A DNA stretch of 64,000 bases from assembly GCF_000026545.1 (NCBI RefSeq), contig NC_011601.1, one strand, 5' to 3'. The stretch comes from Escherichia coli O127:H6 str. E2348/69 (lineage in GTDB: Bacteria; Pseudomonadota; Gammaproteobacteria; Enterobacterales; Enterobacteriaceae). Shown here piece after piece: positions 32,401 to 35,400 of the stretch. Position numbers: made by a program. Numbering within the stretch: position 1 is the first letter of the stretch; the number at the start of each line of letters is the position of its first letter.

Positions 32401-35400
32401 ACGCCGACATTCTGGTGATCACCACTGGCGTCGAAAAAGTGTGTATTCACTTTGGCAAACCGCAGCAGCAGGCGCTGGATCGCGTAGATATTGCCACCAT
32501 GACCCGCTATATGCAGGAAGGGCATTTCCCACCTGGCAGCATGTTGCCAAAAATCATCGCCAGCCTGACGTTCCTGGAACAGGGCGGCAAAGAAGTGATT
32601 ATCACCACGCCGGAATGCCTGCCTGCGGCGCTACGCGGCGAAACGGGCACCCATATTATTAAAACCTAAGGACGTAAGATGAAAGAAAACAATAGCCGCC
32701 GTGAATTTCTGAGCCAGAGCGGTAAGATGGTCACCGCCGCCGCGCTGTTTGGTCCCTCAGTGCCGCTCGCCCATGCGGGGGTAGCTGGCACCCTAAACTG
32801 CGAAGCGAACAACACCATGAAAATCACTGACCCGTATTACTATCTCGATAACGTGCTGCTGGAAACCGGTTTTGACTACGAAAATGGCGTGGCGGTACAG
32901 ACCCGCACGGCGCGCCAGACCGTGGAGATTCAGGACGGTAAAATTGTTGCCCTGCGCGAGAACAAGCAGCATCCGGACGCCACGCTGCCGCACTATGACG
33001 CTGGCGGTAAGCTGATGCTGCCCACCACCCGCGACATGCATATTCATCTCGACAAAACCTTCTACGGCGGGCCGTGGCGCTCGCTCAATCGTCCGGCAGG
33101 CACCACTATCCAGGACATGATCAAACTCGAGCAGAAAATGCTGCCGGAACTGCAACCGTACACGCAGGAACGGGCGGAAAAACTGATCGATTTATTGCAG
33201 TCGAAAGGCACCACCATTGCCCGCAGCCACTGCAATATCGAACCGGTTTCCGGCCTGAAAAATCTGCAAAATTTGCAGGCGGTGCTGGCGCGACGTCAGG
33301 CGGGCTTCGAGTGTGAAATCGTCGCCTTCCCGCAGCACGGTTTGCTGCTGTCGAAATCGGAACCCTTAATGCGCGAAGCGATGCAGGCGGGGGCGCATTA
33401 TGTCGGCGGGCTGGACCCGACCAGTGTCGATGGCGCGATGGAAAAATCCCTCGACACCATGTTCCAGATTGCGCTGGACTATGACAAAGGCGTCGATATT
33501 CACCTGCACGAAACCACGCCGGCAGGCGTGGCAGCCATCAATTATATGGTTGAAACAGTGGAGAAAACGCCGCAGCTAAAAGGCAAGCTGACCATCAGTC
33601 ACGCCTTTGCGCTGGCAACGCTCAACGAACAACAGGTAGATGAACTGGCGCACCGGATGGTGGCGCAGCAAATTTCTATCGCCTCGACGGTGCCGATTGG
33701 CACGCTGCATATGCCGCTCAAACAGTTGCACGACAAAGGCGTAAAAGTGATGACCGGCACCGACAGCGTTATCGACCACTGGTCGCCTTACGGCCTGGGC
33801 GACATGCTGGAAAAAGCCAATCTGTACGCGCAGCTCTATATTCGTCCTAACGAACAGAACCTCTCCCGCTCTCTGTTTTTAGCCACTGGCGATGTATTGC
33901 CGCTCAACGAAAAAGGCGAGCGCGTGTGGCCCAAAGCGCAGGATGATGCCAGCTTTGTGCTGGTGGACGCCTCCTGTTCCGCCGAGGCGGTGGCGCGTAT
34001 TTCGCCGAGAACGGCGACGTTCCATAAAGGGCAACTGGTGTGGGGAAGTGTGGCAGGTTGATATGCATTTAATATGTCTGCAACGGTGAACAGTAAGAGA
34101 TTTAAGCCCCAGGGAGTGGGGCGGCCTGAGTATGAGTGTGTTGGCAGAAATGGACATTATCTTTGAAGAATATGCCCTTATTGACGTTGTGTAGATAACT
34201 ATTTGTCTACGTGAAAATATCATCAGTTTTGCCGATTTTTGTCTTTTACGGATAGCAAATATCACACTTATAGGCGCTCGCCTTATGGGGAACGTTGCTG
34301 CTCTGTTTCATTCAGGCTCGCGGCATGTTGGGGCTGGATCGGGTGGTTTAAATATTGGCTATATTCAATGGACGCGTTTTGCCGCGATGACATATCAGGC
34401 ATCGCCAAATACACATAGCTAATCAGGAGTAAACACAATGAAGATCAAAGCGTGCATATTCCGCTAAACAACCGCTTGAACCGATGGATATCACCCGGCG
34501 TGAACCGGGACCGCATGATGTCAAAATCGAAATCGCTTACTGTGGCGTCTGCCATTCCGATCTCCACCAGGTCCGTTCGGAGTGGGCGGGGACGGTTTAC
34601 CCCTGCGTGCCGGGTCATGAAATTGTGGGGCGCGTGGTAGCCGTTGGTGATCAGGTAGAAAAACATGCGCCGGGCGATCTGGTCGGTGTCGGCTGCATTG
34701 TCGACAGTTGTAAACATTGCGAAGAGTGTGAAGACGGGCTGGAAAACTACTGTGATTACATGACCGGCACCTATAACTCGCCGACACCGGATGAACCGGG
34801 CCATACTCTGGGCGGCTACTCACAACAGATCGTCGTTCATGAGCGATATGTTCTGCGTATTCGTCACCCGCAAGAGCAGTTGGCGGCGGTGGCTCCTTTA
34901 TTGTGTGCAGGAATCACCACGTACTCGCCGCTACGCCACTGGCAGGCCGGGCCGGGTAAAAAAGTGGGCGTGGTCGGCATCGGCGGTCTGGGACATATGG
35001 GGATTAAACTGGCCCACGCGATGGGGGCGCATGTGGTGGCATTTACCACTTCTGAGTCAAAACGCGAAGCGGCAAAAGCCCTGGGGGCCGATGAAGTTGT
35101 TAACTCACGCAATGCCGATGAGATGGTGGCTCATGTGAAGAGTTTCGATTTCATTTTGAATACAGTAGCTGCGCCACATAATCTCGACGATTTTACCACC
35201 TTGCTGAAGCGCGATGGCACCATAACGCTGGTTGGTGCGCCTGCGACACCGCATAAATCGCCGGAAGTTTTCAACCTGATCATGAAACGCCGCGCGATAG
35301 CTGGTTCTATGATTGGCGGCATTCCAGAAACTCAGGAGATGCTCGATTTTTGCGCCGAACATGGCATCGTGGCTGATATAGAGATGATTCGGGCCGATCG

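Follow-up and report, generated by a model that had tools for sequence, protein, structure and literature searches.

A twin-arginine signal peptide on YahJ, an AtzC/CodA-type amidohydrolase encoded at the end of an AllFGH-like operon of Escherichia coli and probably exported to the periplasm

The 64,000-nucleotide stretch of DNA analysed here (the window) is a segment of the chromosome of Escherichia coli O127:H6 strain E2348/69, to which it is 100% identical, and the same region is present in 5094 of 5426 complete E. coli genomes (~94%). The subject of this work is the open reading frame (ORF) located at positions 32679–34061 of the plus strand, 460 codons long, whose DNA is 100% identical to yahJ of E2348/69 and which carries in RefSeq the label yahJ, 'amidohydrolase family protein'. 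It is the final gene of a co-directional array, yahD-yahE-fdrA(yahF)-yahG-(small ORF)-yahI-yahJ, upstream of which are two divergent genes, yahB and yahC, encoding a LysR regulator and a membrane protein, respectively. The YahJ protein starts with a twin-arginine translocation (Tat) signal that is genuine but already known, rather than new. In a table derived from a TATFIND genome survey, b0324 yahJ ('putative deaminase') is listed as a predicted Tat substrate (PMC3027627), and YahJ, with the signal MKESNSRREFLSQSGKMVTAAALFGTSVPLAHA, is among 25 TatP-predicted substrates of a strain of extraintestinal pathogenic E. coli (ExPEC); in the same study, deletion of yahJ caused a slight competitive disadvantage in mice (competitive index of 0.70, p=0.02; PMC7549933). 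In a 2024 survey, yahC, E, G, H, I, and J are grouped as a cluster that belongs to the uncharacterised E. coli 'y-ome' (PMC11551758). Literature searches on YahJ, on yahF, yahG, and yahI, and on yahD returned mostly name collisions and nothing on function.

The Shine-Dalgarno sequence AAGGA (32668–32672, plus strand, read from the sequence) is positioned 6 nt 5' of the yahJ ATG and overlaps the TAA stop codon of yahI (32667–32669), which ends 9 nt before that ATG. This proper spacing, together with the adjoining stop codon, makes the first ATG (32679) a credible start, and translation of yahJ is probably coupled to that of yahI. The stop codon and the ATG share one frame, 9 nt apart (32667–32681). 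Four singleton database proteins of 677–780 residues (P0001, P0003, P0004, and P0008) are YahI–YahJ fusions, in which the Tat signal would lie internally; these entries probably arise from sequencing errors or mutations in the stop codon. A promoter and terminator scan of positions 26100–34600 yielded sites no commoner than those in shuffled sequence, with none on the plus strand.

Codons 1–34 of yahJ (32679–32780) encode MKENNSRREFLSQSGKMVTAAALFGPSVPLAHAG. The translation is identical to that of the original prediction, which had been made from the sequence alone and had recognised here an S-R-R-x-F-L motif, a hydrophobic core, and an AxA site; all three elements are present, and their occurrence is far beyond chance. 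The Tat-type signal peptide comprises residues 1–33 (MKENNSRREFLSQSGKMVTAAALFGPSVPLAHA, 32679–32777, with this and all other features of the gene on the plus strand) and is delineated by its composition and conservation, by its listing in Table 2 of PMC7549933, and by a structural model. Its n-region is polar and terminates in the twin-arginine motif S6-R7-R8-E9-F10-L11 (32694–32711), with R7 and R8 invariant. This motif fits both the TatP regular expression RR.[FGAVML][LITMVF] and the stricter [ST]RRxF[LI], and the lysine of the consensus (S/T)-R-R-x-F-L-K is displaced to position 16. The uncharged h-region that follows, M17–L30 (32727–32768), is of moderate, Tat-typical hydrophobicity and belongs to an uncharged span of residues 17–41, and the c-region, A31-H32-A33 (32769–32777), carries a predicted signal peptidase I site with conserved A-x-A spacing. 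Cleavage would take place between A33 and G34, and the predicted mature N-terminus is a variable linker, G34–T46 (32778–32816), of low conservation and variable length, with a predicted local distance difference test (pLDDT) value below 50. UniProt also marks residues 1–33 as a Tat-type signal.

Against a reference set of 22 Tat signal peptides of E. coli, drawn from Table 2 of PMC7549933, the YahJ signal is of ordinary dimensions. Its length is 33 residues (mean of the reference set, 33.6), the distance from the arginine pair to the cleavage site is 25 residues (23.2), the h-region is 17 residues long (18.6), and the mean Kyte–Doolittle value of the 17-residue uncharged stretch M17–A33 is 1.26, against a reference of 1.24 with a standard deviation (SD) of 0.25; all four parameters are within one SD of the reference. 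The chance expectation of the strict motif [ST]RRxF[LI] in the first 35 residues, computed from the amino-acid frequencies of the window itself, is ~0.26 per proteome of 4300 proteins, and in the window YahJ alone has it among the 38 ORFs of at least 250 residues. The closest counterparts are the E. coli Tat substrates that contain no redox cofactors (SufI, AmiA, AmiC, MdoD, FhuD, and YcbK), with which YahJ shares the arrangement S/T-R-R-x-F/L-L/I, an uncharged h-region of 13–24 residues, and the A-x-A site. The parameters of YahJ are mid-range among those of these proteins, and it is listed together with them in PMC7549933 and PMC3027627. Unlike them, YahJ is a triosephosphate isomerase (TIM) barrel of the amidohydrolase superfamily, the only one in those lists.

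The signal is conserved well beyond E. coli. Among the 120 closest database clusters (71–100% identity), which represent Escherichia, Citrobacter, Klebsiella, Raoultella, Kluyvera, Enterobacter, Serratia, Xenorhabdus, Cedecea, Erwinia, Pragia, Aeromonas, and Shewanella, 116 have RR-x-F-[LI] at residues 5–9, and the exceptions are four YahI–YahJ read-through fusions, one truncated gene call, and one R-H variant. YahJ of Xenorhabdus szentirmaii (P0092), with N-R-H-E-F-L, is the sole full-length orthologue seen to be devoid of the arginine pair and represents either a natural variant of the Tat signal or a decaying gene. In a scan of one genome per species, with counts limited to the 77 loci that have an intact 5' end, the arginine pair and an uncharged stretch of at least 13 residues are retained in every locus, and A-x-A is found at a conserved distance from the pair in 73 of them. 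Over these 77 distinct DNA sequences the codons of R7 and R8 vary synonymously (CGC, CGT, AGA, CGG, CGA, and AGG) with the amino acid remaining constant, and codon variability in the signal region is highest at third positions, 1.42 bits versus 0.58 at second positions. Such synonymous turnover with fixed residues indicates that residues 1–33 are translated and are under purifying selection. In an alignment of 24 sequences (A1), R7 and R8 are invariant even in the Tat-bearing relatives, down to 35% identity. The F and L/I that follow the pair are also conserved across genera, and the linker beyond the predicted cleavage site varies among the orthologues in both sequence and length.

These data bear directly on the alternative that the N-terminal extension is an annotation artefact or a vestige, with the true start at M17 or M47 and a cytoplasmic product. 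The clear purifying selection on residues 1–33 with turnover of synonymous codons, as well as the Shine-Dalgarno sequence at the correct spacing from the first ATG, leave this explanation barely credible, in spite of the fact that most of the distant members of the family have no extension and that M47 directly precedes the conserved fold. Both internal starts were rejected as candidates, M47 being not conserved among the orthologues and M17 being replaced by V, I, or L in many of them.

Two curated hidden Markov models (HMMs) of the Tat signal speak, at face value, against the assignment. NCBIfam TIGR01409 gives 15.4 bits for residues 1–50, just under its cut-off of 16.7 (E=0.018), and Pfam TAT_signal (PF10518) has no match to YahJ at E<=10. 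The misses, of which that of TIGR01409 is marginal, are a weakness of short, low-information models and, because of the conservation data, are not counted as evidence against the signal. A further adverse point is the lack of a positive 'Sec-avoidance' charge in the c-region and the mature N-terminus of YahJ, which makes some Sec routing possible. Export mainly through Sec, the twin arginines being tolerated but not decisive, would nevertheless leave unexplained why both of them are absolutely conserved across genera together with the subsequent F and L/I, the hydrophobicity of the h-region is Tat-typical, and the passenger is a 45-kDa metalloenzyme, a class of protein for which Tat is used; this route is very improbable.

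Exported YahJ could in principle stay on the periplasmic face of the inner membrane, held there as a lipoprotein or through a signal that is not cleaved. A member of the same superfamily, the organophosphate hydrolase of Brevundimonas diminuta, is Tat-targeted and membrane-associated, and some YahJ orthologues have early in the h-region the sequence V-T-A-C, a loose lipobox pattern. This pattern is placed at the start of the h-region rather than at its end, the position of the Cys is occupied by Ala in E. coli, the A-x-A spacing from the arginine pair is conserved in 73 of the 77 loci, and the site is followed by a variable linker, as is usual for a cleaved signal. Retention at the membrane is improbable, and a lipoprotein, considered as a separate candidate, was rejected on the same lipobox-like matches, restricted as they are to the h-region start of some orthologues. 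From its sequence, Tat export of YahJ as a folded metalloenzyme is very likely. The periplasmic location put forward by the original prediction thus holds as the expected topology, to which both the features of the signal and the published Tat-substrate lists point.

The structural model and the family models delimit the signal from the other side. In the AlphaFold2 model of YahJ, residues 1–46 have pLDDT below 50 and are detached from the fold, forming only an isolated helix of low confidence (residues 7–23), and the confident fold begins near residues 47–50. The match to NCBIfam NF005312 is similarly limited to residues 49–459. Among representatives at 50% identity, most full-length relatives (385–430 residues) begin straight at the first β-strand, with no extension, and the closest branch (62%, 51%, 50%, and 47% identity) as well as a few members further away (36% and 33%) carry Tat-type N-termini. 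One of the Tat-type relatives has S-R-K-G-F-L. A family model that begins at residue 49 and distant relatives that mostly have no extension mark the extension of YahJ as an added targeting module, that is, as judged from these comparisons, an add-on within a mostly cytoplasmic family.

The amidohydrolase domain of YahJ, from about M47 to G460 and the stop codon (32817–34061), consists of a (β/α)8 barrel with a β-sandwich, of the AtzC/CodA type. The match to NF005312 (PRK06846), whose cut-off is 447 bits, reaches 714.2 and pairs residues 49–459 with positions 2–410 of the 412 in the model, and the Pfam domains are Amidohydro_3 and Amidohydro_1. The catalytic residues are H121 (33039–33041) and H123 (33045–33047) of the HxH motif in strand 1, Q219 in strand 4, H275 (33501–33503) and E278 (33510–33512) of the HxxE motif in strand 5, H308 (33600–33602) in strand 6, and D362 (33762–33764) in strand 8. 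All of these are invariant in the 24 aligned sequences, with the exception of E278, which is nearly so. The catalytic motifs align with those of AtzC and of 6nbo, an AtzC-like protein from Burkholderia multivorans, which is the nearest solved structure by sequence (E=1.5e-43). AtzC of Pseudomonas sp. ADP (2qt3, 4cqb) matches at ~5e-30, and structures of cytosine and 5-methylcytosine deaminases match at 1e-15 to 2e-20. The AlphaFold2 model (pLDDT 82.7) also has 6nbo as its top Foldseek match, with E=1e-30 and a TM-score of 0.86, followed by AtzC and CodA; TM-scores of the model on AtzC/CodA-type structures, normalised to the target, are 0.73–0.86. With all its catalytic residues in place, YahJ looks catalytically competent, and the mature protein resembles a mononuclear hydrolytic deaminase or dealkylaminase. 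A cytosine deaminase orthologue was considered and rejected, with NF005748, NF006685, and NF005759 scoring 102, 82, and 68 bits against cut-offs of 438, 483, and 403.

AtzC (N-isopropylammelide isopropylaminohydrolase; 2qt3, 4cqb) and 6nbo have the same fold as YahJ (Foldseek TM-scores of 0.82–0.86), are homologous to it (E=1.5e-43 to 5e-30), and have in common with it the set HxH, Q, HxxE, H, and D, but the identity is only 21–28%. Their solved chains have no N-terminal signal, the matches starting at YahJ residues 104–107, which correspond to chain residues 43–63. The substrate of YahJ is not known to be a triazine. CodA (1k6w, 3o7u) and 5-methylcytosine deaminase (4r7w) share with YahJ the mononuclear subtype of the amidohydrolases and the catalytic motifs; their chains of 423–431 residues also have no signal extension, matching from chain residues 11–26, equivalent to YahJ residues 76–82, at ~21–24% identity. 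CodA is a cytoplasmic enzyme.

The other genes of the array encode, in contrast to YahJ, proteins with no export signal. The carbamate kinase paralogue YahI (316 residues; yahI, 31719–32669, plus strand) matches NCBIfam NF009007 with 649 bits and has no signal peptide. YahG (29971–31389, plus strand), a member of the AllG family (formerly DUF1116) and a paralogue of subunit G of oxamate carbamoyltransferase, matches Pfam PF06545 with E=4e-89. YahF (28424–29971, plus strand) is assigned to the FdrA/AllF family by NCBIfam NF004760 (493 bits), and a YahF orthologue carries the Pfam domains HMA_AllF_N, CoA_binding, and Ligase_CoA. YahE (27571–28434, plus strand), of the AllH family (formerly DUF2877), matches Pfam PF11392 with E=2e-28. 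The ankyrin-repeat protein YahD (201 residues; yahD, 26926–27531, plus strand) has no signal peptide, and a search of the PDB with it returned only generic ankyrin and DARPin matches, as well as an uncharacterised protein of 198 residues, 5d66. The two divergent genes are on the minus strand: yahC (26171–26668), encoding a DUF1097 inner-membrane protein and present only in lineages whose operon has no permease gene, and yahB (25147–26079), whose LysR-type product has its best matches in AllS, the activator of the allantoin regulon (268 bits), and PunR (238 bits), both under the NCBIfam cut-off. The match to AllS fits an origin of the yah cluster as a paralogue of part of the allantoin system. 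No Tat motif was found in YahB, C, D, E, F, G, or I and no signal-like N-terminus in YahD, E, F, G, or I, in agreement with the cytoplasmic location originally assigned to the carbamate kinase and the FdrA-like proteins.

Experiments have identified AllF, AllG, and AllH as the oxamic transcarbamylase that works with the carbamate kinase AllK when allantoin is degraded anaerobically (PMC11326118, PMC9843812), and phosphorolytic carbamoyl transfer has been demonstrated only for AllFGH with oxalurate (PMC11326118, a paper that names no yah gene). Subunits of the AllF, AllG, and AllH families are encoded together with a carbamate kinase in the single yah operon, and YahEFG with YahI would be a paralogous module that uses some ureido compound to make carbamoyl phosphate and, from this, ATP. 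The two systems (PMC11326118, PMC9843812) have in common the three subunit families, the kinase, the gene order F-then-G, and an AllS-like regulator, but only yah includes an ankyrin protein, a UraA-fold permease in most species, and an amidohydrolase predicted to be periplasmic.

The gap between yahG and yahI (31390–31718) is occupied by three tandem 93-nt units of repetitive extragenic palindromic (REP)/bacterial interspersed mosaic element (BIME) type, 77–87% identical (31403–31681, plus strand). Over these units RefSeq annotates a hypothetical protein of 90 residues, WP_001101850.1 (~31415–31687), which gives a spurious match to NCBIfam SidA. This ORF, in the position of 'yahH', is almost certainly not a gene; in K-12, yahH has been described as filled with REP23 sites (PMC11551758).

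The organisation of the operon was surveyed by tblastn of the window proteins against 80 species loci, and the four resulting types were confirmed by independent gene calls with Pfam annotation. Type A, yahB divergent from yahD-(E)-F-G-permease-I-J, is the commonest, with 51 loci in Citrobacter, Yokenella, Enterobacter, Lelliottia, Leclercia, Serratia, Buttiauxella, Atlantibacter, Providencia, Proteus, Budvicia, Zophobihabitans, and Aeromonas. Type B differs from it in the lack of the permease and the presence of yahC (8 loci with a full flank, in Escherichia, Pseudocitrobacter, Kluyvera, Klebsiella, and Raoultella). In type C, yahB is accompanied by yahD-yahJ only (6–9 loci, in Cedecea, Erwinia, and Pluralibacter), and in type D yahJ is alone (at least 7 loci, in Xenorhabdus and Shewanella). 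Synteny is conserved over the Enterobacterales, Aeromonas, and Zophobihabitans, and in at least 59 of the 80 loci the co-directional array ends with yahJ, 9–50 nt after the carbamate kinase gene. Several type A loci of Enterobacter, Lelliottia, Leclercia, Silvania, and Aeromonas (L023–L035, L042, L043, and L066) do not contain yahE, the gap between yahD and yahF being ~100 nt.

The Tat signal is kept in types C and D, in which yahEFGI are absent within 10 kb. The regulator excepted, the most persistent partner of yahJ across genera is the ankyrin gene yahD, not yahEFGI, and yahB stays beside yahD-yahJ even in loci devoid of yahEFGI. In Erwinia the stop codon of yahD overlaps the start of yahJ. 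The arrangement hints at a physical partnership of YahD with YahJ, and the original grouping of yahDEFGI on one side and yahJ on the other was, for the same reason of persistence, not quite right.

A gene for a polytopic permease of 512–526 residues is located between yahG and yahI in 51 of the 80 loci (e.g., L010:7461–9008 and L002:7300–8847). The protein is 83–88% identical between Aeromonas and the Enterobacterales and 62–75% identical to homologues in Brevibacillus, Paenibacillus, and Bosea. Searches of Pfam, NCBIfam, and the PDB by sequence gave no match, so that the permease is placed only by the names given in the source databases ('xanthine permease', 'AGZA family') and by its predicted fold. 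Its AlphaFold2 model (pLDDT 83) is closest to SVCT1, SLC26Dg, BicA, UraA, AZG1/2, and UapA, with E values of 3e-7 to 5e-5 and TM-scores of ~0.5–0.6, and these proteins share the 7+7 'UraA-fold' of elevator transporters. It appears to represent an uncharacterised transporter family of unusually high conservation. A search for its remnant in the window by tblastn found none (E>0.6), and chromosomal E. coli has probably lost the gene, with REP elements now in its place. The 59 loci of types A and B whose upstream flank is long enough for this comparison have either yahC (8) or the permease gene (51), never both; yahC may be a functional replacement of the permease, or the pattern may be one of lineage history. 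A second copy of yahB-D-E-F-G-permease-I is present in 142 of 5426 complete E. coli genomes, with 106 of 152 matches on plasmids.

The following explanation, which we hold with a probability of about 0.8 as a whole, is preferred. YahJ would be synthesised as a precursor of 460 residues with a cleavable twin-arginine signal at residues 1–33, and would fold and take up its single catalytic metal in the cytoplasm, as its His-x-His/His/Asp ligand set and the known role of Tat suggest. TatABC would then export it, in agreement with the published lists of Tat substrates, and signal peptidase I would cut after A-H-A33, yielding a soluble periplasmic enzyme that begins at G34. The mature protein would be a mononuclear amidohydrolase of the AtzC/cytosine-deaminase type that acts outside the cytoplasm on a small nitrogen-rich compound, its chemistry most likely being hydrolytic removal of an amino or alkylamino group or conversion of an amidine or guanidine carbon to a carbonyl. 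In the preferred reading of the genomic context, YahJ may act outside the cytoplasm as the entry enzyme of a pathway in which the energy of a carbamoyl group is conserved. Its product would be imported, in most relatives by the dedicated UraA-fold permease encoded between yahG and yahI, carbamoyl phosphate would be formed in the cytoplasm by YahEFG through phosphorolysis of a ureido compound, and from it YahI, the carbamate kinase, would generate ATP, NH3, and CO2. The parts of this explanation differ in strength. The signal and the periplasmic location are highly probable, and the topology, with YahJ outside and YahEFGI inside, is as well supported as sequence analysis allows. The link between the product of YahJ and YahEFGI is, in turn, tentative, and we would rate it clearly below an even chance.

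Several observations weigh against the preferred explanation, mostly against this link. Deaminases of the YahJ type do not open rings, which leaves one or more missing steps on the way from a deaminated heterocycle to a ureido substrate. Copies of yahJ persist with no yahEFGI in Erwinia, Cedecea, Pluralibacter, Xenorhabdus, and Shewanella, and the permease is absent from chromosomal E. coli. Conversely, the one plasmid copy of the module that was examined (pSA186_2, NZ_CP022731.1, 9203–28750; L086) does not include yahJ; it is flanked by insertion sequence (IS) elements, and an IS3 element follows the kinase gene at the expected position of yahJ. Finally, a minority of E. coli yahJ alleles (P0009–P0012, P0023, P0034, and P0048) have in-frame internal deletions of 26–60 residues that remove catalytic motifs, for example residues 200–235 (the FPQHG strand) or 265–310 (H275, E278, and H308), with the signal peptide retained, and this suggests that the gene is decaying in some E. 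coli lineages.

Some of these observations lead to a different picture, in which YahJ works by itself in the periplasm, metabolically unconnected with YahEFGI, and yahJ terminates the operon solely because of shared regulation by YahB. Its role would be nitrogen scavenging or the detoxification of an N-heterocycle or guanidino compound from the host or the environment, through release of ammonia outside the cytoplasm. The retention of the Tat signal in type C and D loci, the plasmid copy of the cytoplasmic module with no yahJ, and AtzC/CodA-type chemistry, which yields no carbamoyl donor directly, all agree with this possibility. It does not account for the position of yahJ, which terminates one co-directional array, 9–50 nt past the carbamate kinase gene, in at least 59 of the 80 loci, nor for the usual presence in the array of a permease, as would be required for a pathway that starts outside and continues inside, and the allantoin cluster follows the same succession of amidohydrolase, carbamoyltransferase, and carbamate kinase (PMC11326118, PMC9843812). 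We regard a stand-alone enzyme as plausible, at somewhat less than an even chance.

Both of these possibilities were contained in the original prediction, which had proposed either a split pathway, with deamination or ring cleavage in the periplasm followed by uptake and cytoplasmic processing, or a YahJ functionally distinct from its neighbours, and comparative genomics lends some support to each. The split pathway gains support from the permease of the commonest form of the operon (51 of the 80 loci), which supplies the uptake step that it needs, and it fits the logic recurrent in E. coli of an amidohydrolase, then a carbamoyltransferase, and then a carbamate kinase; it is weakened because yahJ and yahEFGI are separable both ways, chromosomal E. 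coli lacks the permease, and the chemical gap remains. The functional distinctness of yahJ is favoured by its Tat-bearing copies in loci of types C and D, but its usual terminal position in the operon argues the other way.

We can speculate, by analogy, that the chemical gap would be closed if YahJ were a deiminase acting on a guanidino or amidine compound to give a ureido product. The arginine and agmatine deiminase pathways comprise a deiminase, a catabolic carbamoyltransferase, a carbamate kinase, and a transporter; hydrolytic conversion of C=N to C=O gives a ureido compound, the phosphorolysis of which yields carbamoyl phosphate for the synthesis of ATP. The likeness of yah to them would be one of this four-part logic, a functional resemblance only, as the deiminase, transferase, and transporter belong to other families and all the enzymes of those pathways are cytoplasmic, whereas in the proposal for yah the first one is periplasmic. 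In its full form, the analogy would make yah an ATP-yielding deiminase/carbamoyltransferase/carbamate-kinase pathway with an extracytoplasmic first step, in which periplasmic YahJ turns a guanidino or amidine compound into a ureido product, the permease imports it, YahEFG and YahI make ATP, and YahD is a dedicated partner of YahJ. YahC could then possibly replace the lost permease, and the part of YahD could be that of a chaperone acting before export, or of an inhibitor by which cytoplasmic activity of the folded deaminase is prevented. As a complete scheme this is unlikely.

YahJ has been present in inventories of Tat substrates since the early 2000s and is a routine member of Tat mutant panels. 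The interest lies rather in the role of a folded deaminase of the AtzC/CodA type in the enterobacterial periplasm, and in the usual place of yahJ at the end of an operon whose other products include a carbamoyltransferase resembling AllFGH, a carbamate kinase, and a permease of nucleobase type. With the operon of E. coli being a degraded version that lacks the permease, Citrobacter, Enterobacter, Serratia, Providencia, and Proteus are better suited for a substrate search, and the metabolic interpretation is better pursued in species that retain the permease.

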